The notes below the pieces were generated by a model. It was given only the letters and a program-made list of their open reading frames with translations. It was not told the DNA's origin and did no database searches. From Sphingobacteriales bacterium (GTDB lineage: Bacteria; Bacteroidota; Bacteroidia; Chitinophagales; LD1), in NCBI GenBank assembly GCA_018262795.1, contig JADFDM010000013.1, forward strand, positions 8,159 through 72,158: 64,000 bases of DNA, in the 5' to 3' direction. Numbering within the stretch: position 1 is the stretch's first letter; each line of letters opens with the position of its first letter. Both the position numbers and the translations under genes were made by a program. This document shows, in pieces, positions 1 through 39,116 of the stretch.

Positions 1-157
1 ATAGCAGTGGTTGTTGATTTGAATATTTTGATGTAAGCTATTATCCCAGATTTGCAGTGGGTCGTTTAACCCCAAAGTGCAAACTTTTTTCGGGACGATA
101 CAAAATAAAGAAGCCTAACCGAGTCCTTGTATTGTCTGGCAAACAAGCACAAATTAA

Positions 158-30727: not shown

Positions 30728-31348
30728 TCATTTAATACTCTTCAAACCTTCTAATGCCGATTTATCATCGGGCGCGAGCAGCAATGTTTTGTTGAACAGC
30801 ACTTTCGCTTCATTCACTTTGCCCAACTGTAAATTGCACCAAGCGTAAAGCAGCAATCCATCATAGTCAAAAGGATATAGGTTCACCACCTTCTCTAAAT
30901 ATTCAAAAGCCTTAGAGTAGTCCTTTCTACCGTAATAAATAGAGCCTATCCGATAATTGGCTTTGGTGTTTTGAGGATCAATCTTTGTGATTTCTAAATA
31001 CTGATTCAGCACAGCATCCCAATTGCCGGCAGCCGCAGCGGGAAGCACATACCCAAATTTCGCTTCAATGCTGTAAGGCATCAAATTCATTGCCCGCTGA
31101 TAATAACTCATAGACTCGGTAAACAAGCCCGCTTCATAGTTCAGGTAAGCCAGCCGCAGGTTGATCTCGTAACTTTTCTCATCGTAAATGGCAGCCACCT
31201 CTTTAATGGCATCACTGTATTTCCCCGACTTCTCGGAGGTGTAACTTTTGGTGAATGCGCTCTGCACGGCACTCTGCGCAAACGCAGAACTACCGGTTAA
31301 AAAAAGCAGCACGAAGAAAAGTGAGGTGATTTTTGTGATTGGTTTCAT
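30728..31348 (-). CDS. Exported TPR protein
   Basis: Signal peptide ending SAFA-Q; consecutive TPR-like helical repeats; ATG at 31348. Confidence 0.8.
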   Translation of the reverse strand: MKPITKITSLFFVLLFLTGSSAFAQSAVQSAFTKSYTSEKSGKYSDAIKEVAAIYDEKSYEINLRLAYLNYEAGLFTESMSYYQRAMNLMPYSIEAKFGYVLPAAAAGNWDAVLNQYLEITKIDPQNTKANYRIGSIYYGRKDYSKAFEYLEKVVNLYPFDYDGLLLYAWCNLQLGKVNEAKVLFNKTLLLAPDDKSALEGLKSIK

Positions 31349-31358
31349 AACTATTGGT

Positions 31359-32528
31359 TTAGAAAATAATTTTTGTTCCGAATGAAATTCCATGACTAAT
31401 GTAATTGGTTTGAAGCGTCTGCTCTTTCTTAAATTCTAATTGGTAAAGCGCATATATACGGTAACGGTTCTGGATGATAAACTCCGGTACAAAAGTCAAA
31501 TTATCATTCAACCTATCGTAACCGTTTTGAACGATAGCTCCGTTGTACAAATTGAAATTGCGAACCCGCGCATAAGTGTAAGCAGCGCTGAACGAAAAAT
31601 AACGCGGGAAGTTAAAACTCACCTTGGCCTGAAACAAGGGATGAACCTTCTGATACAGATTGTCTGTAAAAAGTATCATCGTGCCACTCAAGGATAAGCG
31701 CTGATTGGCCAGCGGATAAACCGTAACACCCAAGCTGTGTTGTAGCTGATAAGAAGTGTCGAAATTTGAAAATGAGTTAGCCAGCGCCACCTTCGCATAA
31801 GAGAAATTCTTTGTCACATTCAAAGAACCTAAGAAATAAGCCTTCTTAGTTTTCACTATCTTATCCGTAGAGTTGAACACAGCATACAACACACTGAAGG
31901 CGGGAGTAAGAGAGAACCCTTTTTTGAGAGGAAGATTTGCACTCACGTAATATTGATGCTGCTGATAAGTGCCATAATAATATTGCTGCTGTACGTAACT
32001 ATAAGAATGAAATAAGGAATAGCCGCGAACCAGCAAGTGATTTAAGCCGAAAGAAACATAATACAATGGCTTCACGGTTTTGGAGGCAGAAGAAAACTTC
32101 ATCCCTACCTCTGCGGTCGCAGCATTTATGAGAGATGCTTTTTTCGTATGCGTAATAGCGCGAAGTGAATCTGAAAAATGGGCCGTCATTCGTTCCCCTT
32201 CATTATATAGGTCACTAAAAAGATAGCTGTAGTACAGATATTCTTTCGTCCACTCGTTGGATGAATTAAACTGCTGTGCTTTTTCAAAATGAGAAAGCGC
32301 TAAGCGATATTTTTGTTGCTCGTAGCAGGCAATGCCTACTCGCATTCGCAGGTAGTAATAATCAATATGCCGATGAATAGCCTTGCGGCCCTGTTGCTCC
32401 AACGCTTTCCATTTTCCCGATTGATAAAGCGCATAGGTGCTGTCGTTCACTAATTTTGAATCAAGCTCCGTTTGCGCAGAGGCCGACACCGAAACGCAGG
32501 CGAGAAGAACAGAAATCAACTTATACAT
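31359..32528 (-). CDS. TPR plus predicted beta-barrel outer-membrane protein
   Basis: Signal peptide, TPR-like N-terminus, aromatic-rich amphipathic strands, terminal Phe (GISFGTKIIF). Confidence 0.6.
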   Translation of the reverse strand: MYKLISVLLACVSVSASAQTELDSKLVNDSTYALYQSGKWKALEQQGRKAIHRHIDYYYLRMRVGIACYEQQKYRLALSHFEKAQQFNSSNEWTKEYLYYSYLFSDLYNEGERMTAHFSDSLRAITHTKKASLINAATAEVGMKFSSASKTVKPLYYVSFGLNHLLVRGYSLFHSYSYVQQQYYYGTYQQHQYYVSANLPLKKGFSLTPAFSVLYAVFNSTDKIVKTKKAYFLGSLNVTKNFSYAKVALANSFSNFDTSYQLQHSLGVTVYPLANQRLSLSGTMILFTDNLYQKVHPLFQAKVSFNFPRYFSFSAAYTYARVRNFNLYNGAIVQNGYDRLNDNLTFVPEFIIQNRYRIYALYQLEFKKEQTLQTNYISHGISFGTKIIF

Positions 32529-34720
32529 TCCGCTGTTATCGTATGGTGATGGTGGGTTACCTTAAAAGTGCTAATCTTTCCTTGCGCTACCGAAATTTCA
32601 AAATCCATTCTCTTTAAAATACCGGAGGCAGCATGAACGGTGGCGGAAGATTCAATTACCACAAGACTTGGTTGATGCGGGTCATCGGTGCTTTTAAATT
32701 TCGAGGAATAATCTGCTTTTAAGTAGATGTAGAAAGGAGCGATAAAATCTTGCAGAAATTTAGCGACTCCCGAATAGAAACCGCTCATGGGCAACACATC
32801 GCTCACTTCTAAGCGGTCGTAATAGCCCAACACAATCTTATAGGCTCCGAGATAGAATTGGTAGAGCAAAGATTTCTTATCGCCATAAAAATCGGTGAAG
32901 TAATGCACCGTGCCGTTGTTTACAAAATAGGCATAGGCTTTTGATTGGTGGCAATAGAGATAGGTGTGGTTGTAAGCATCGGTAAATACTTCCCACCTCA
33001 GCAGCTGTTTTTTGTTATGGTCCGAGCGGCTCACCTCAAACTTTAATTCCTTCCCGGGAATAAAGTCAAAGGCACTTTTTAAGATGGGCGTTATCTGTAT
33101 GCCCGAAATAGTTGATCGCTCTTCGGGGTAATCAAAGGAGTGAAAGGTGTACTCTCCTTCTTTCTTCTCTACATAATAACTGATGGGATACTTCATAGTT
33201 TTAGACCCCACAAAGGGAGTGGCCTGTAATTGGAAATGTATGTGCGGCTCTGGAGAACGACCCGAACTGCCGCAAGCAGCCACTACTTGCCCTTTGTAAA
33301 CATACTCTCCCGGCTTCACTTTAAAACTCCCCTTGCGAAGGTGGCTTATCTTTGAATAAAGCGCATCACTGTGTTTAATGATGAGCGTATTGCCCCAGTT
33401 ATGTTCCAGATTTACTTCTCCAATCGGATTGTCTTCCACTTCATCTACAAGGTCGTACACATAGCCGGCAGCCGGGGCCAACACGGGTGCATTGTAACCA
33501 TAGAAATCACTCACCGCAGTGCCGGGAAGCCGAAAGGTTATCTTCATGTCGTCAGTCACTACAAAATCCCATGCATATTTCCATTCTCCTTTGTGCGTAA
33601 TATTTCCTTCGTGCCCTTGCGATACATACCATTCTCCAAAAAATGGCAGATGAATATGGAAATATGATTGATTGCTGAAACGATCTTTTCCGTTGCGGTG
33701 TTTATACAAATTCTTCTCCGGAGAAAACTGTTGAATCCACACTAACTCAAGTTGGTTCGACTCTGTGCGATACTTCAGCGTGAGCAACAACACAATCAGA
33801 ATAATATTAAACGGCAGCGAATAAATAGGCAATTGAAAAGAACCGAACACCACCATCATAGAAGTGTGCATGATAGCAATGATGGGAGCTGTAAGAAGAG
33901 CGAGTAAATAAGATTTTGGGGAGGGAATCAAGAAGAATCCTCCGATGCAAATGGCAGATAGGATATAATTGAAGCCGATGAAATTATAGTTGAGCGGCTC
34001 GGCACTTCCGTTGAGGAATTGAAAAAAATAATAGCCGGTCACAAAACCCACCAAAGAGAGCGTAAAGGCAATGCGCGAGTAAATGAGCAACCCCACTGCA
34101 ATCAACAAACCGGAGATAATGTTGTACTGAAAATAGATGGCCCCCAACGATTTAAAATAAGCATCGGCCCAGCGAGGTATTGGCAGGGCATCTAAGTACT
34201 GAAACCATTCTACCAAGTGAATTCCTCCGAGCGAGTACAACTCATTATTTACAAAAATCCCTGTTTGGCTGAGGGTGACCACCGAAGAAGTGCGAAGAGT
34301 CACAATTAAAGCCCATACAGATAGCAAGAAAGGGAAAGCGAGAATCGGTAAGTTGTATTTTGAAAACACAATAGCAATAGCCTTAGAGAGCAGTGTGGTG
34401 AAAACAGAAATTACAAAAAGGATGATGAAGAACTGAATGCTGAAATTAAAATACAGCCCCATCACCAAGCCTATCATCAAGCTGTTGAAACTATACACGC
34501 CCGTTTGCAAATACGTTTTATTGAAGCCGAGCCACCAAGCGATTAATATACCCGATGTGAGCGCAAACACTCCGCTAAAACCCGAATACGGATTTACGAA
34601 AGAAGAGAGGAGAATGAGATAAGCAAAGGTGCGATTGTCCGAAAAGAACATTTGCGAATAGCTATGAATAAAGCTATCTGCAAAGAATTTCAATGCGTGT
34701 TTACGGTGTGCCGCTAACAT
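32516..34720 (-). CDS. Urea-transporter-family membrane domain fused to an M23 metallopeptidase domain
   Basis: Two UT half-repeats (SYSQMFFSDN...LPILAFPF; SLGAIYFQYN...LPIYSLPF), then M23 motifs TH.....AWDF, SHL..GS and GSSGRSPEPHIHFQ. Confidence 0.8.
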   Translation of the reverse strand: MLAAHRKHALKFFADSFIHSYSQMFFSDNRTFAYLILLSSFVNPYSGFSGVFALTSGILIAWWLGFNKTYLQTGVYSFNSLMIGLVMGLYFNFSIQFFIILFVISVFTTLLSKAIAIVFSKYNLPILAFPFLLSVWALIVTLRTSSVVTLSQTGIFVNNELYSLGGIHLVEWFQYLDALPIPRWADAYFKSLGAIYFQYNIISGLLIAVGLLIYSRIAFTLSLVGFVTGYYFFQFLNGSAEPLNYNFIGFNYILSAICIGGFFLIPSPKSYLLALLTAPIIAIMHTSMMVVFGSFQLPIYSLPFNIILIVLLLTLKYRTESNQLELVWIQQFSPEKNLYKHRNGKDRFSNQSYFHIHLPFFGEWYVSQGHEGNITHKGEWKYAWDFVVTDDMKITFRLPGTAVSDFYGYNAPVLAPAAGYVYDLVDEVEDNPIGEVNLEHNWGNTLIIKHSDALYSKISHLRKGSFKVKPGEYVYKGQVVAACGSSGRSPEPHIHFQLQATPFVGSKTMKYPISYYVEKKEGEYTFHSFDYPEERSTISGIQITPILKSAFDFIPGKELKFEVSRSDHNKKQLLRWEVFTDAYNHTYLYCHQSKAYAYFVNNGTVHYFTDFYGDKKSLLYQFYLGAYKIVLGYYDRLEVSDVLPMSGFYSGVAKFLQDFIAPFYIYLKADYSSKFKSTDDPHQPSLVVIESSATVHAASGILKRMDFEISVAQGKISTFKVTHHHHTITAECIS

Positions 34721-34733
34721 GGAGTCTTAAAAA

Positions 34734-36092
34734 TCACAGTTTAAACTTCGCTAAATAATCCGGCTTTACCTCGCTGGACTCAATGGAGCTGAGCGTTTCT
34801 CTTTTGCGAATGAGATGCGGTTGATGCTCCATATCTATCATTACTACAGCCGGCCGCAGCGAAATGAACTGCATCCATTGCGTCATGTTATACGCTCCAA
34901 CATTATGCACCACTACATGGTCATCTTTTTTCAATGGAGGCAGCGTTACGTTTTCGCGAATCACATCAATATTCATACACAAGGGGCCGTATAGCACACA
35001 ATCCTCGGTGTAGTTGCTAAACTCCTGTGCCGGACTTATTTTATGGTCATACCAAAAGGACGTGAACATTACATTCACTCCAAAGTCCAGAATGGTAGCT
35101 CGCCTTCCATCGCTCAGTCGCTTATTTGAAATTACAGTGCCTAACAAGTACCCTGCTTCGTCAATCAGTGCGCGGCCGGTTTCTAAAATGAGCAAAGGCA
35201 ATTCATCGGTGCCAAAACCGGAGTTGAGGATAGCGGCACAAATCGCTTCGGCAAACTGATCGAAATTCGGATTGGCATCTACCCCCTGCAAATAAGAGCC
35301 CTTCAGAGTATTTTTTGAAGCGAAGCCACCGCCCATATCAATATATTCAATATTGCGCTTGTATTTTTTGCGAATGCCGAGAGCCAAGTCGCTTATTTTA
35401 GAGGCAGCAATACCGTAAGCGCTGGGCGAAAGCATAAAAGTGCCGATGTGACAATGCAGCCCCACCAATTCCAATTTATCCGTCAGTATAATTTTATTGA
35501 TGGCATCCCAGGCTTGTCCGTTTTCGTAATTGAAGCCGAAGCGATCCCAAATTGGATAAATGCCCGTGTCCATGTTTACCCGAATTGCTACCCGTGGGCG
35601 CAGCTTTAGTTCTTCTGCAATCTCCGTTAAGCGGTAAAGTTCATCGAGGTGATCAATGTGAATAGGCGAATTGTTTCTCACCGCCATCTTCAACTCCTCA
35701 TCTGTTTTATCAGGGCCGTTGAAAATCACTTTGTTGCCCGGCACTCCGTTGTTGATAGCCTTCTGATATTCAAAACCCGATACTACTTCGCCCCACGAAC
35801 CCTCCTGATGAAAAACATTGCAGACCGCATTGATGTAATTCGTTTTATACGACCAGGCAAACTGCACCTTCGGGTAGCGCGTTTTAAAGGCACGAGTAGC
35901 TTCGCGGTAGGTTTGGCGAATCGTTCTTTCTGAAATAGCAAAAAGTGGCGAGCCAAAATCTTCGAGCAACTTTACGACCGACACATCATCAATATGCGTG
36001 AGCGGAGTATATTCTGTGCGCATACCGAATTTGTTCATCAGTCCGGCATTCAGTCGCTGAATCAGCGGGCGTTCATATTGTAGTTTCTTCAT
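34734..36092 (-). CDS. Fold-type III PLP decarboxylase (DAP/Orn/Arg decarboxylase family, BtrK-like)
   Basis: WSYKTN (PLP Lys), HCHIG, DMGGGF, ETGRAL, GPLCMNID and VGAY motifs; ATG at 36092. Confidence 0.85.
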   Translation of the reverse strand: MKKLQYERPLIQRLNAGLMNKFGMRTEYTPLTHIDDVSVVKLLEDFGSPLFAISERTIRQTYREATRAFKTRYPKVQFAWSYKTNYINAVCNVFHQEGSWGEVVSGFEYQKAINNGVPGNKVIFNGPDKTDEELKMAVRNNSPIHIDHLDELYRLTEIAEELKLRPRVAIRVNMDTGIYPIWDRFGFNYENGQAWDAINKIILTDKLELVGLHCHIGTFMLSPSAYGIAASKISDLALGIRKKYKRNIEYIDMGGGFASKNTLKGSYLQGVDANPNFDQFAEAICAAILNSGFGTDELPLLILETGRALIDEAGYLLGTVISNKRLSDGRRATILDFGVNVMFTSFWYDHKISPAQEFSNYTEDCVLYGPLCMNIDVIRENVTLPPLKKDDHVVVHNVGAYNMTQWMQFISLRPAVVMIDMEHQPHLIRKRETLSSIESSEVKPDYLAKFKL

Positions 36093-36112: not shown

Positions 36113-37162
36113 TCAATACTCTCCAAAGGTGGAGATGGTTTCAAATTCTTTCAGATCGCAAATCATGTCGTAGCTATAGCGGATAAACATTTTGCCCACT
36201 TCATATTCCGCAAAGGATTTCACCTCTTCCCCCATCGCCATCCGCATCATGGCATCGGGGTGGTTTTGCCCGGCTCCCACAGCGAGATATACCCAGGCCG
36301 GAAACCGCGGATTGATTTCGATGAGGTAATACTCGTTGTTATTCGTCTTTATCATTTCCAATTCGCAAGGGCCTTTCCATTTTGAGTGGCGGATGAGTTT
36401 TTGGGTGATTTGCAGCAGCTTGTCATCTTCAAGAGTAATACCTGCCCATGCTTTCCCTTTGTCGGTAATCACTTGCTTGCGCATAGGTACCGCGCCAATG
36501 GTGTTTCCCTTGCCATCGCCCAGCGCAGTCACGTTTACCTCAGTGCCGTAAGTGAATTGTTGAATGATAATAGGCAGCCCCCATTTGGCACTTATTTTAT
36601 TGAAATATTGCGCGGCCTGATCGGGTGTGTAAGCAACGTTGGCATCGTAAAATTTCCCTTTCACTACTAAGGGATATGAAAACTGCTGCGATAGGGAAGG
36701 AATTTCAGAGAGGCTGAAAACCATTTTGCTCTTAGGTACTTTGATTTCATATTTCTTTCCAAACTCGGTGAGGTTTGCTTTGTGCCTCTCTTCAAATTGA
36801 TCGAGGGTAGGCAGAAAGGTTTGAATGTTCAATTCTTTCTCCAGCACCGGAGCCAGCTTAATAAAGTTGAAAAGCTCGGCATCAAAATTTGGAATAATCA
36901 AATCAATCTTCTCTTGGTTGTGGATGTATCGGAGACGCTCTAAGAGACTACTTTGCCCGGCTGTGGGCAGTGGAATATGATAGGTTTTCGCTACCAAGTT
37001 GCGCATGTATATTCCCGGTTCCAACGCATCATAGGCAAGGCCGATAATGCGAACCTCATAATCTTTGCTATCGAGCAAACCGCGAATTACGGGAATGCCG
37101 GGGCCGGGGCTGTCAATATTATTGAGGCCGGTCACGGCCACGTTAATCTTTTTCTTTCCCAT
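36113..37162 (-). CDS. ATP-grasp ligase
   Basis: IDLIIPNFDAEL, YPLVVKG, IIQQF..G.E and LIEINPRF motifs. Confidence 0.88.
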   Translation of the reverse strand: MGKKKINVAVTGLNNIDSPGPGIPVIRGLLDSKDYEVRIIGLAYDALEPGIYMRNLVAKTYHIPLPTAGQSSLLERLRYIHNQEKIDLIIPNFDAELFNFIKLAPVLEKELNIQTFLPTLDQFEERHKANLTEFGKKYEIKVPKSKMVFSLSEIPSLSQQFSYPLVVKGKFYDANVAYTPDQAAQYFNKISAKWGLPIIIQQFTYGTEVNVTALGDGKGNTIGAVPMRKQVITDKGKAWAGITLEDDKLLQITQKLIRHSKWKGPCELEMIKTNNNEYYLIEINPRFPAWVYLAVGAGQNHPDAMMRMAMGEEVKSFAEYEVGKMFIRYSYDMICDLKEFETISTFGEY

Positions 37163-37403
37163 CGGTATCGGTTAGTTTTACCTGCTCCAGCATTTTGGTG
37201 AAATCATAATAATCCTTTTCTACCGTATCGCGATCGGTGGCATACTTGCCCAGCAGATGCTTTTTAATCTCCTCCTCCGGCTTATTCTCTTTTAGCATTT
37301 TCAGTATTTCCAGCCCGATAGGGTTCACTGAAAAAGAGTCGCCTGTGGAAGGGTTAAACACAAAGCCCGTATCGCTCAAAGCGATGTTCTTCTTTATTAT
37401 CAT
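37143..37403 (-). CDS. Stand-alone PqqD-family / RiPP recognition element (RRE) protein
   Basis: 86 aa; beta strands GFVFNPSTGDSFSVN, then helices PIGLEILKML...EIKKHL...Y...TVEKDYYDF..ML, matching the PqqD pattern. Confidence 0.78.
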   Translation of the reverse strand: MIIKKNIALSDTGFVFNPSTGDSFSVNPIGLEILKMLKENKPEEEIKKHLLGKYATDRDTVEKDYYDFTKMLEQVKLTDTDGKEKD

Positions 37404-37488: not shown

Positions 37489-38094
37489 TTAGGAGGAGGG
37501 GAGTTGATTGACCGGTATCCGTTTGCGGTGAAACTCCTTCTTGTAATCCTGCACATTGATACCCGTAATCTGCTTAAACTGGTTCGACAAATATTGCACG
37601 CTGCTATAGTCGAGCAGGTGTGCAATCTCGCTCAACGTAAGCTCTCCGTAAGAAATAAGTTCCTTCACCTTTTCCATTTTTATTTGGATGATATACTTCT
37701 CTAAAGTAGTGCCGGTTTTTTGTGAAAATACTTTGCTGAGGTGGGAGTAAGACTCCCCTAATCGCTGACTTAAATAGTCGGAGTTGCGAAGGATGGTATT
37801 GGTGTTGTTGCCGTAAAAAATCAATTGGATGATGGCTTGCTTCATCTGCTCCACCAACTTCAACTCCCGGTCATCTATCAACCCAAATCCGTGATTGCCT
37901 AACAATTCTTGAAGCGCTTCGTGACCAATCACTTGATTGTTGTAACTAATCACCGCCATCCCCAATTCAATGTGGTGTACCTTGATAAAGCCCGTGCGCT
38001 CCAACTCCCAGCGAACCACCTTGATGCAGCTATCGCTCACCATATTGCGGATGTAGATGGTCATTTGCTTGTTATTAAGAGTGGATGGCTGCAT
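37489..38094 (-). CDS. AraC-family transcriptional regulator with an HMA-like N-terminal domain
   Basis: IYIRNMVSDSCIKVV N-terminus; HLSKVFS...GTTLEKY and LTLSEIAHLLDYSSVQYLSNQFKQITG HTH; the start may be at 38064. Confidence 0.88.
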   Translation of the reverse strand: MQPSTLNNKQMTIYIRNMVSDSCIKVVRWELERTGFIKVHHIELGMAVISYNNQVIGHEALQELLGNHGFGLIDDRELKLVEQMKQAIIQLIFYGNNTNTILRNSDYLSQRLGESYSHLSKVFSQKTGTTLEKYIIQIKMEKVKELISYGELTLSEIAHLLDYSSVQYLSNQFKQITGINVQDYKKEFHRKRIPVNQLPSS

Positions 38095-38516: not shown

Positions 38517-39116
38517 ATGCTTCTATTGCTTGCCTTTGCTTTAGGTTTTGTGGGTTATCTGCCATTGGGAAATATCAATCTCACGGTGTTGCAGTTGAGC
38601 ATGGAACAGCAGAAAAGACATTGGCAGGCGTTTATCGCGTTCGCGGCTCTGATGGAATTCATTTATTGCTATGCTTGCATTTCGGGTCTTGAATTACTGC
38701 GCAGAGAAACACAACTAATAGTGATGTTTAACTGGAGTGCGGTGATTATTTTTCTGCTGCTCGGTATTTTTACTTTCACTCATACCGAAACAGTAAGGCC
38801 CGATTCGCGATTGTCACCGGGGGTAAAACGGGGTATATTATTGGCGGTGTTTAACCCTTTACAAATTCCGTTTTGGATGGTGTGGGGGGTGTATATGATG
38901 CAGAATGGCTGGCTCCAAAGCAGCGCGATTTCTATTGCGCTGTTCAGTTTTATTTGTGCGTTGGGCGCGGCCTCCATTCTCTACATTTATGCGCTGGCGG
39001 GGAAAAAAGTGGTGGAGAAACTGAATGTGAACGGGAATATTTTGAACCGCTTTATCGGCTCTATTTTTATTTTGCTGGCGGTGTATGAGACCATAAAAAT
39101 TATTTACCACTTGTAA
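38517..39116 (+). CDS. LysE-superfamily membrane transporter
   Basis: GYLPLGNINL and GILLAVFNPLQIPFW motifs; about 6 TM helices. Confidence 0.8.
   Translation: MLLLLAFALGFVGYLPLGNINLTVLQLSMEQQKRHWQAFIAFAALMEFIYCYACISGLELLRRETQLIVMFNWSAVIIFLLLGIFTFTHTETVRPDSRLSPGVKRGILLAVFNPLQIPFWMVWGVYMMQNGWLQSSAISIALFSFICALGAASILYIYALAGKKVVEKLNVNGNILNRFIGSIFILLAVYETIKIIYHL

Follow-up and report, generated by a model that had tools for sequence, protein, structure and literature searches.

The DNA analysed here, which we call the window, is a 64,000-nucleotide stretch of contig JADFDM010000013.1 from a Sphingobacteriales bacterium (GCA_018262795.1). Its minus strand carries an operon that includes genes for a PqqD-family protein, an ATP-grasp ligase, a decarboxylase, and a urea-transporter-like channel with an M23 metallopeptidase domain (UT-M23). 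The PqqD-family protein is a RiPP recognition element (RRE). RREs serve as class-independent beacons in genome mining for peptides that are ribosomally synthesized and then post-translationally modified (RiPPs), on the premise that each binds a small precursor peptide. In this operon, the leader that a lasso-type RRE seems to recognize forms part of an enzyme, namely the decarboxylase. The main features are:

37489-38094, minus strand: AraC-type regulator, the first gene of the tight operon
37143..37403, minus strand: stand-alone PqqD-family RRE (86 amino acids), predicted to be of the lasso B1 type, from PF05402 and from profile and fold matches
37323-37325 (N27), 37212-37214 (D64), and 37200-37202 (F68), minus strand: codons of the predicted cleft residues of the PqqD protein
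36113..37162, minus strand: ATP-grasp ligase (349 amino acids), from Pfam and NCBIfam ATP-grasp matches
34734..36092, minus strand: fold-type III decarboxylase that uses pyridoxal phosphate (PLP), a LysA paralogue (452 amino acids), from PF02784 and PF00278
35997..36092, minus strand: N-terminal tail of the decarboxylase (residues 1-32), from translation, conservation, and predicted disorder
36060..36077, minus strand: Y6-E-R-P9-L-I11, a leader-type [Y/W/F]xxPx[I/L/V] motif
36075-36077 (Y6), 36066-36068 (P9), and 36060-36062 (I11), minus strand: codons of the motif
36030..36032, minus strand: K21, a lysine 15 residues after the aromatic residue, within NKFG
32516..34720, minus strand: urea-transporter-like channel fused to M23 metallopeptidase and C-terminal domains (734 amino acids), from PF03253 and PF01551

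The ATP-grasp and PqqD genes overlap by 20 nucleotides (nt). The gap between the AraC and PqqD genes is 85 nt, as an initial annotation of this DNA had stated. That annotation had also described a lasso-leader-like YxxP motif at the start of the decarboxylase, ahead of its PLP-barrel core. The minus strand of 36024-36092 does translate to MKKLQYERPLIQRLNAGLMNKFG, which is the start of the decarboxylase and contains Y6, P9, and I11. The tail has a basic start, then the Y6-x-x-P9-x-I11 motif, a G17-x-x-N-K21-F-G23 segment, and lastly a linker that varies. Relatives use the same start, the ATG at 36090-36092: of the 120 nearest proteins in the database listing, 116 open with M-x-K-x-x-YERP, and the remaining four are shorter calls that start at an internal methionine. 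(We considered a TTG at 36116 as the start and dropped it; the in-frame sequence upstream is not conserved.)

Because profiles for LysA and FslC, and the solved structure of FslC, align only from residues 32-37 of the decarboxylase, we consider residues 1-31 to be an N-terminal extension. The decarboxylase scores 244.1 bits against the FslC profile (NF041039; the cut-off is 500) and 218.7 bits against the LysA equivalog (TIGR01048; the cut-off is 297.9), and a genuine LysA is encoded on another contig of the genome (393 bits). Since it misses both family cut-offs, with the true LysA elsewhere, the decarboxylase is best described as a LysA paralogue with an extension of about 31 residues. Its best solved relative is FslC (7kh2), and BtrK is also among its solved relatives (E = 3.5e-23). 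The tail is predicted to be disordered: in the AlphaFold2 monomer, the predicted local distance difference test score (pLDDT) is below 50 for residues 1-25, versus a mean of 85.9. The linker between the motif and the core is variable in sequence, and its length differs by as much as 8 residues. Of the 2,363 open reading frames (ORFs) in this genome, 50 (2.1%) have the bare motif within residues 2-12, so it is the conservation of the tail, rather than a single match, that carries weight.

We found the tail to be conserved together with the RRE. Of 401 sampled genomes from the phylum, 31 contain an orthologue of the decarboxylase (47-100% identity, with alignments that start at residues 1-5). 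The other matches in these genomes (24-32% identity) are ordinary LysA-like genes, which mostly align from residue 28-40 or so. Strong matches to PqqD (at least 57 bits; the next best is 44.6) are found in exactly the same 31 genomes. The initial annotation had proposed checking whether YxxP occurs only together with the RRE; in the sampled genomes of this phylum it does, and the ordinary LysA-like relatives lack the extension. Close relatives with no apparent tail do exist (P0140, P0144, and others, with 38-44% identity); these may be mis-called starts or genuine tail-less forms. When we scanned metagenomes with an alignment of these apparently tail-less relatives, only tailed members of the cassette were returned.

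For a broader view, we took 80 loci each from metagenomes and from a species-level collection of genomes, in addition to 30 from the phylum search. A [YFW]xxPx[ILVMF] motif is near the start in all 189 orthologues whose N-terminus lies on the contig. In the 184 tails that we extracted, the proline is invariant, the aromatic residue is tyrosine (79%), phenylalanine (18%), or tryptophan (3%), and I, L, V, or M occupies position +5. The G-x-x-N-K-F-G segment is as strongly conserved as the docking motif: lysine is at +15 in 169 of the 184, and K21 is invariant in one alignment of the decarboxylases. The order PqqD, ATP-grasp, decarboxylase, UT-M23 is found in 29 of the 30 phylum loci (a contig end cuts the 30th) and recurs across 160 loci from other phyla and from metagenomes. 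In every case the ATP-grasp gene has PqqD on one side and the decarboxylase on the other, and UT-M23 is the fourth gene wherever the locus extends that far. The cassette is found in Bacteroidota, Ignavibacteriota, Myxococcota (including a cultured Sorangium), Marinimicrobia, Lentisphaerota (Lentisphaeria), Planctomycetota, and Omnitrophota.

Where at least 1450 nt of upstream sequence is available, the PqqD gene is present in 151 of 156 loci. Four of the five exceptions are explained: two have a divergent PqqD-like ORF in place, one has a gap of 100 Ns, and one has PqqD on another contig (E = 6e-22). The fifth (L139) is considered below.

A divergent subfamily (L145, L146, L148, L149, L157-L162, L172, L182, and L204) has YSPPTI or YLPPSI tails. 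Its members lack NKFG and the lysine at +15, with an Arg/Asn-rich segment there, and they have a longer linker and a far more divergent PqqD. This subfamily may perform different chemistry with the same docking logic.

We examined the PqqD protein. It scores 40.2 bits against PF05402, above the gathering score of 23.4. A profile built from 21 PqqD proteins of the cassette matches TbiB1 (E = 1.4e-12), then TfuB1 (4.4e-8), and then PbaB1, all ahead of true PqqD. The AlphaFold2 model (pLDDT of 82) has strands at 14-17 and 22-25 (plus a two-residue DSSP strand at 8-9) and helices at 28-38, 43-53, and 58-74. In other words, it has the three strands and three helices of the winged-helix fold, and it superposes on TbiB1: Foldseek aligns it to leader-bound TbiB1 (5v1u/5v1v) with a template-modelling score of 0.80-0.82 and a root-mean-square deviation of 1.6-2.8 Å. 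The curated NCBIfam families for lasso PqqD are not reached (30.4 bits versus 70 for NF033530; 18 bits versus 80 for NF033536). Neither the lasso protease B2 nor the cyclase C is beside PqqD in any locus; the genome beyond the cassette was not searched for either.

The residues that contact the leader also appear to be kept. According to Popov et al. 2026 (PMC13381572), discrete lasso RREs recognize [Y/W]xxPx[L/V/I/A/F/Y]. In the LppB complex as described there, D70 forms a hydrogen bond with the leader's tyrosine, N33 fixes the kink at the proline, and F74 divides two pockets. In PbaB1, Q79 forms a hydrogen bond with the leader's tryptophan, and D68 anchors the residues that precede the aromatic residue (PMC13381572). 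N27, D64, and F68 of the window's PqqD protein correspond to profile columns 28, 65, and 69. (The structure alignments use chain numbering with an offset of 18.) These columns align with N33, D70, and F74 of LppB, and columns 65 and 69 align with Q79 and F83 of PbaB1. Across 148 cassettes, the contact columns have asparagine in 139, aspartate in 114 (or in 120, if the 6 with asparagine are included), and phenylalanine in 139. Judging from these alignments and from the model, the PqqD protein of the operon is a lasso B1-type RRE that retains the leader-contact residues.

We also considered whether PqqD might be a carrier like LysW. In LysW/LysX systems, the small carrier ends in a conserved glutamate that is ligated. 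We rejected this for PqqD: the C-termini of the 21 aligned proteins vary in both length and sequence.

We paired 148 distinct tails with their own PqqD proteins. The top inter-protein pair is the aromatic residue of the tail with column 65 of PqqD (z = 8.7), and it is still first if all columns of the four cassette proteins are included (z = 9.1). If the tail has tyrosine, then column 65 is aspartate (111) or asparagine (6) in all 117 cases. If the tail has phenylalanine, then column 65 is tyrosine (19), serine (5), phenylalanine, threonine, or histidine (1 each), and is never aspartate or asparagine (0 of 27). For tryptophan tails, it is aspartate (3) or glutamate (1). The absence of aspartate and asparagine with the phenylalanine tails is what the lost tyrosine hydroxyl would lead us to expect, if the aromatic residue sits in the first pocket of the RRE. 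As a control for shared ancestry, we scored all 1,322 columns of the four proteins against the Y/F state of the tail. Only column 65 splits perfectly; the next-best column has 8 mismatches. (The runners-up are UT-M23 columns 332, 326, and 344; out of about 128, they have 8-12 mismatches. They lie in the linker between the channel and the M23 domain, at residues of about 325-344 or window positions 33710-33745, and may reflect a lineage signal or a weak third contact.) The second-ranked pair is position -2 of the tail with PqqD column 54, which aligns with D68 of PbaB1. By sequence, this pair is charge-complementary: 41 combinations are basic with acidic and 4 are basic with basic.

The initial annotation had reported no free precursor ORF in or around the operon, and our six-frame scans, which reached down to 10-15 amino acids, bear this out. 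With a hidden Markov model (HMM) of the tail, the only match among 134,264 six-frame ORFs of the genome is the decarboxylase itself (E = 9.6e-15; the next best is 0.33). Among 62,680 ORFs from 180 related loci, the model finds only long ORFs (179), and the 12 short matches all have E of at least 0.65. In 20 loci of about 14 kb, no flanking ORF of at least 25 amino acids is conserved, other than two tetratricopeptide repeat (TPR) genes, and no ATG-initiated ORF of 12-90 amino acids recurs upstream of PqqD. There are 123 tiny ORFs with the motif in 275,106 nt, none of which recurs in place. Finally, we searched proteins of 20-88 amino acids in a set of 5.8 billion proteins, using an alignment of the tail (42 amino acids) as the query. 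All 8 matches are N-terminal fragments of the decarboxylase that enter the core. The tail motif belongs to a 452-residue enzyme, unlike a leader on a small precursor that has its own gene and a core peptide.

Overall, we propose that the decarboxylase carries its own leader in residues 1-23 and that this tail docks canonically in the cleft of the RRE from the same operon. The sequence comparisons support this strongly, and we consider it probable (roughly 0.78). Five independent comparative lines lead us to the enzyme's own tail as the ligand: the co-occurrence, the type of the RRE, the unique co-variation, the predicted disorder of the tail, and the lack of a free peptide. The initial annotation had suggested the same ligand, and the comparisons support it. 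In the proposed complex, the hydroxyl of Y6 would bond with D64 in helix 3 of the RRE, N27 would hold the kink at P9, F68 would part the tyrosine pocket from the isoleucine pocket, and the basic residues before the tyrosine would be near the acidic end of helix 2.

Some observations weigh against docking, or limit how strongly it can be stated. On the tree of the decarboxylase core, the Y/F state and column 65 each switch about 4 times. This gives 3-4 independent pairs of switches, all in the same direction, and a sign test gives p = 0.25. A sign test with 3-4 events cannot reach significance, so we place the weight on the control with all columns. One metagenome contig (L139; 8,127 bases) has a tailed decarboxylase, and the other three genes of the cassette were not found on it. 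PqqD is unlinked from the decarboxylase in two genomes. And apart from the proline, no residue of the tail is universal.

Two other explanations would remove the tail as the ligand, and we think that both are improbable. The tail might be an intrinsic element of the decarboxylase, such as a lid or a dimer contact, with the RRE binding something else or nothing. In 141 of 189 sequences, 74 residues separate the aromatic residue from the WSYKT of the core, which fits with this idea, and because the tail was modelled in the monomer only, a contact across the dimer could have escaped us. But an intrinsic element would not explain why the sole column of 1,322 that tracks the Y/F state is the very residue of the RRE that binds the leader's tyrosine. 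It would also leave the second, charge-complementary pair unexplained, and the RRE would have no ligand in any of 180 loci. Least probable of all, in our view, is that a very short or distant peptide with the motif is the true ligand, and that the tail mimics it or competes with it. Such peptides can be missed: gene callers seldom call ORFs of under 30 amino acids, and the precursors for fosfazinomycin (FzmZ, with 21/22 residues) escaped ORF finders (PMC13622209). However, our scans went well below that size, and neither the surroundings of 180 cassettes nor the genome itself yielded anything recurrent; the search of small proteins gave only fragments of the decarboxylase.

What would docking be for? 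The genes for the RRE and the ATP-grasp are translationally coupled, and we infer that the RRE would present the sequence after the motif to a partner enzyme, as in RiPP pathways, which would tie the decarboxylase to the ligase. The G-x-x-N-K21-F-G segment would be placed where the core of a RiPP would be. The ligase might then acylate K21 with an amino acid, the decarboxylase core might decarboxylate this amino acid on its tether, in the way that BtrK acts on a carrier, and the cytoplasmic M23 domain might cleave the amide beside the urea-transporter-like channel. If docking is correct, then by analogy such a lysine tether is possible, although we would rate it below an even chance. The full scheme makes the enzyme its own carrier: the RRE docks the tail, the ATP-grasp loads Lys21, the core decarboxylates, and M23 (or a Sir2-type deacylase in two cassettes) releases the product for export. 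We regard this full scheme as tentative and rather doubtful.

The mention of Sir2 refers to L114 (3353-9244) and L129 (3519-9260), which are from metagenome-assembled genomes of Omnitrophota and Scalindua. In these two cassettes, the urea-transporter gene lacks the M23 domain and is followed by an overlapping gene of the Sir2 family. The order is PqqD, two ATP-grasp genes, the tailed decarboxylase, the urea-transporter protein without M23, and Sir2, and both keep the lysine at +15. (The L114 cassette also has an aldo/keto reductase.) Once truncations at contig ends are set aside, no other locus of the 180 lacks M23, and no other has Sir2. The activity for which Sir2 enzymes are mainly known is lysine deacylation. 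Because Sir2 replaces M23 here, the release step may cleave an acyl-lysine, which would fit with a lysine tether like that of BtrI/BtrJ/BtrK. This hints in favor of the tether.

Several points count against the K21 tether. The replacement by Sir2 is probably a single evolutionary event. Lysine is missing at +15 from 14 of the 184 tails (the YSPPTI/YLPPSI group and L196). Also, co-variation between the tail and the ligase is only slightly above the background of clade-specific columns. Position +13 of the tail pairs best with ATP-grasp column 287, which is next to the EINPR motif of the ATP-grasp catalytic region (residues 282-286 in the window's protein), and other columns score close to it; as judged from the alignments, this is a weak lead. 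K21 is a candidate for either a tether or a contact with the ligase.

The simplest explanation is that docking is just a scaffold: the tail, bound by the RRE, would hold the decarboxylase on the ligase, a free intermediate (such as an N-acyl ornithine or lysine, as for FslC) would be passed between them, and the tail would not be modified. This is a serious alternative to the K21 tether, albeit one that we would still bet against. All of the evidence for docking fits it equally well, FslC (the closest characterized enzyme) uses a free N-acyl amino acid, and the tails without lysine pose no problem for it. On the other hand, the 7 residues past the motif (G..NKFG) are as conserved as the motif itself, and a scaffold would leave the M23 domain and its Sir2 replacement without a role. 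A natural fusion of the ligase to the decarboxylase bears on this as well. We found in-frame fusions of ATP-grasp and decarboxylase (P0129 and P0273, with 871 amino acids; also P0271/P0272) in two variants on 7 contigs. Their linker is acidic, rich in proline, and about 60 residues long, and the docking motif (MAYVRPSI, YVRPSI) is kept within the fusion, even though tethering the two enzymes would then be redundant. In the fusions, the lysine at +15 is arginine. (On a third contig, an ATP-grasp and a decarboxylase of the fusion type are split, apparently by a frameshift.) We think it unlikely that the tail is instead a removable propeptide, which the RRE would present to M23 for cutting near NKFG, so as to activate the decarboxylase or release it at the membrane. 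It is true that a lasso B1 RRE presents the leader to a peptidase (PMC13381572), that the conserved segment after the motif is flanked by glycines, and that the HxH residues of M23 are conserved: H493 in 119 and H495 in 116 of 138 aligned rows, with gaps in the other rows. But a propeptide would leave the ATP-grasp without a role, and in two cassettes the enzyme that stands in for M23, Sir2, is not a peptidase.

The proposal that the tail docks in the RRE can be compared to known systems. The best matches to the PqqD protein, by both sequence and structure, are lasso RREs that have been solved with their leaders: TbiB1-TbiA (5V1U/5V1V), TfuB1/FusB1 (6JX3), and PbaB1 (9X90), alongside LppB-LppA (9X8Z). 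They share the fold, the [Y/W]xxPx[L/V/I] motif in the ligand, and the Asn, Asp, and Phe residues of the cleft. Lasso RREs read small precursors, whereas the ligand here would, from its sequence, be the N-terminus of a 452-residue enzyme. Lasso clusters have a protease and a cyclase, while the neighbors in the cassette are the ATP-grasp, the decarboxylase, and UT-M23. The cassette also differs in having phenylalanine variants of the motif, paired with loss of the aspartate.

For the chemistry, the nearest comparison is BtrI/BtrJ/BtrK, which make the side chain of butirosin. There, an ATP-grasp ligase and a decarboxylase of the LysA fold act on a tethered amino acid. The cassette shares the pairing of ligase and decarboxylase, with genes that are adjacent or overlapping. 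Unlike in BtrI/BtrJ/BtrK, the five operon proteins that we scanned (AraC to UT-M23) have no match to a carrier-protein family and no phosphopantetheine site. Any tether here would be an amide on a lysine of the enzyme's own tail, and an RRE is present. By profile and by solved sequence, the closest characterized enzyme is the N-citrylornithine decarboxylase of the rhizoferrin pathway (FslC/FigC; PDB:7KH2), which decarboxylates an amino acid that is amide-joined to an acid. FslC aligns only from residue 35, lacks an equivalent of the tail, has no RRE, and works with a ligase other than an ATP-grasp.

The fosfazinomycin system (FzmZ/FzmA/FzmF) resembles the cassette in another way: an RRE reads YxxP, the pathway includes an ATP-grasp, and a peptide serves as the platform for building a small molecule (PMC13622209). 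That scaffold, as described there, is a free peptide of 21/22 residues that is modified at its C-terminus, whereas in the cassette an enzyme carries the motif and a free peptide was not found. Our search of the full-text literature (supplementary files were outside its scope) returned no description of this combination of genes, nor of YxxP with a decarboxylase and an RRE. The only match was fosfazinomycin, with its free 22-mer (PMC13622209).

If the tail does dock in the RRE, then the repertoire of RREs would widen to include the assembly of proteins or self-carrier chemistry. This would also account for one class of RREs, the "orphans" without a precursor, and it would give a concrete and inexpensive entry point into an unstudied six-gene system. 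If the enzyme is indeed its own carrier, then the cassette would make a small molecule by a leader-guided route in the style of RiPPs, without any gene for a precursor peptide.

The operon is completed by genes downstream of UT-M23:

30728..32528, minus strand: two secreted TPR-containing proteins (389 and 221 amino acids), from TPR matches, which complete the six-gene operon

Relatives of the TPR genes are directly downstream of the cassette in 19 of 20 larger loci. Relatives of the AraC gene are near the cassette in only 2 of these 20. In the window, just past the AraC regulator, there is a divergently transcribed gene for a LysE-type translocator (38517-39116, plus strand).

Some gene calls contain just the tail and the first residues of the core: P0281 (65 amino acids, on 19 contigs of up to 24.6 kb) and P0284 (39 amino acids, on 13 contigs of up to 37 kb). 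These could be frameshifted or pseudogenized copies, or a recurrent assembly error. Finally, one single-contig genome (G337) has the cassette, with identical scores, at both of its ends (C1:2580-3911 and C1:3733996-3735327). This is most simply explained as an unclipped overlap in the assembly of a circular genome, rather than a duplication.

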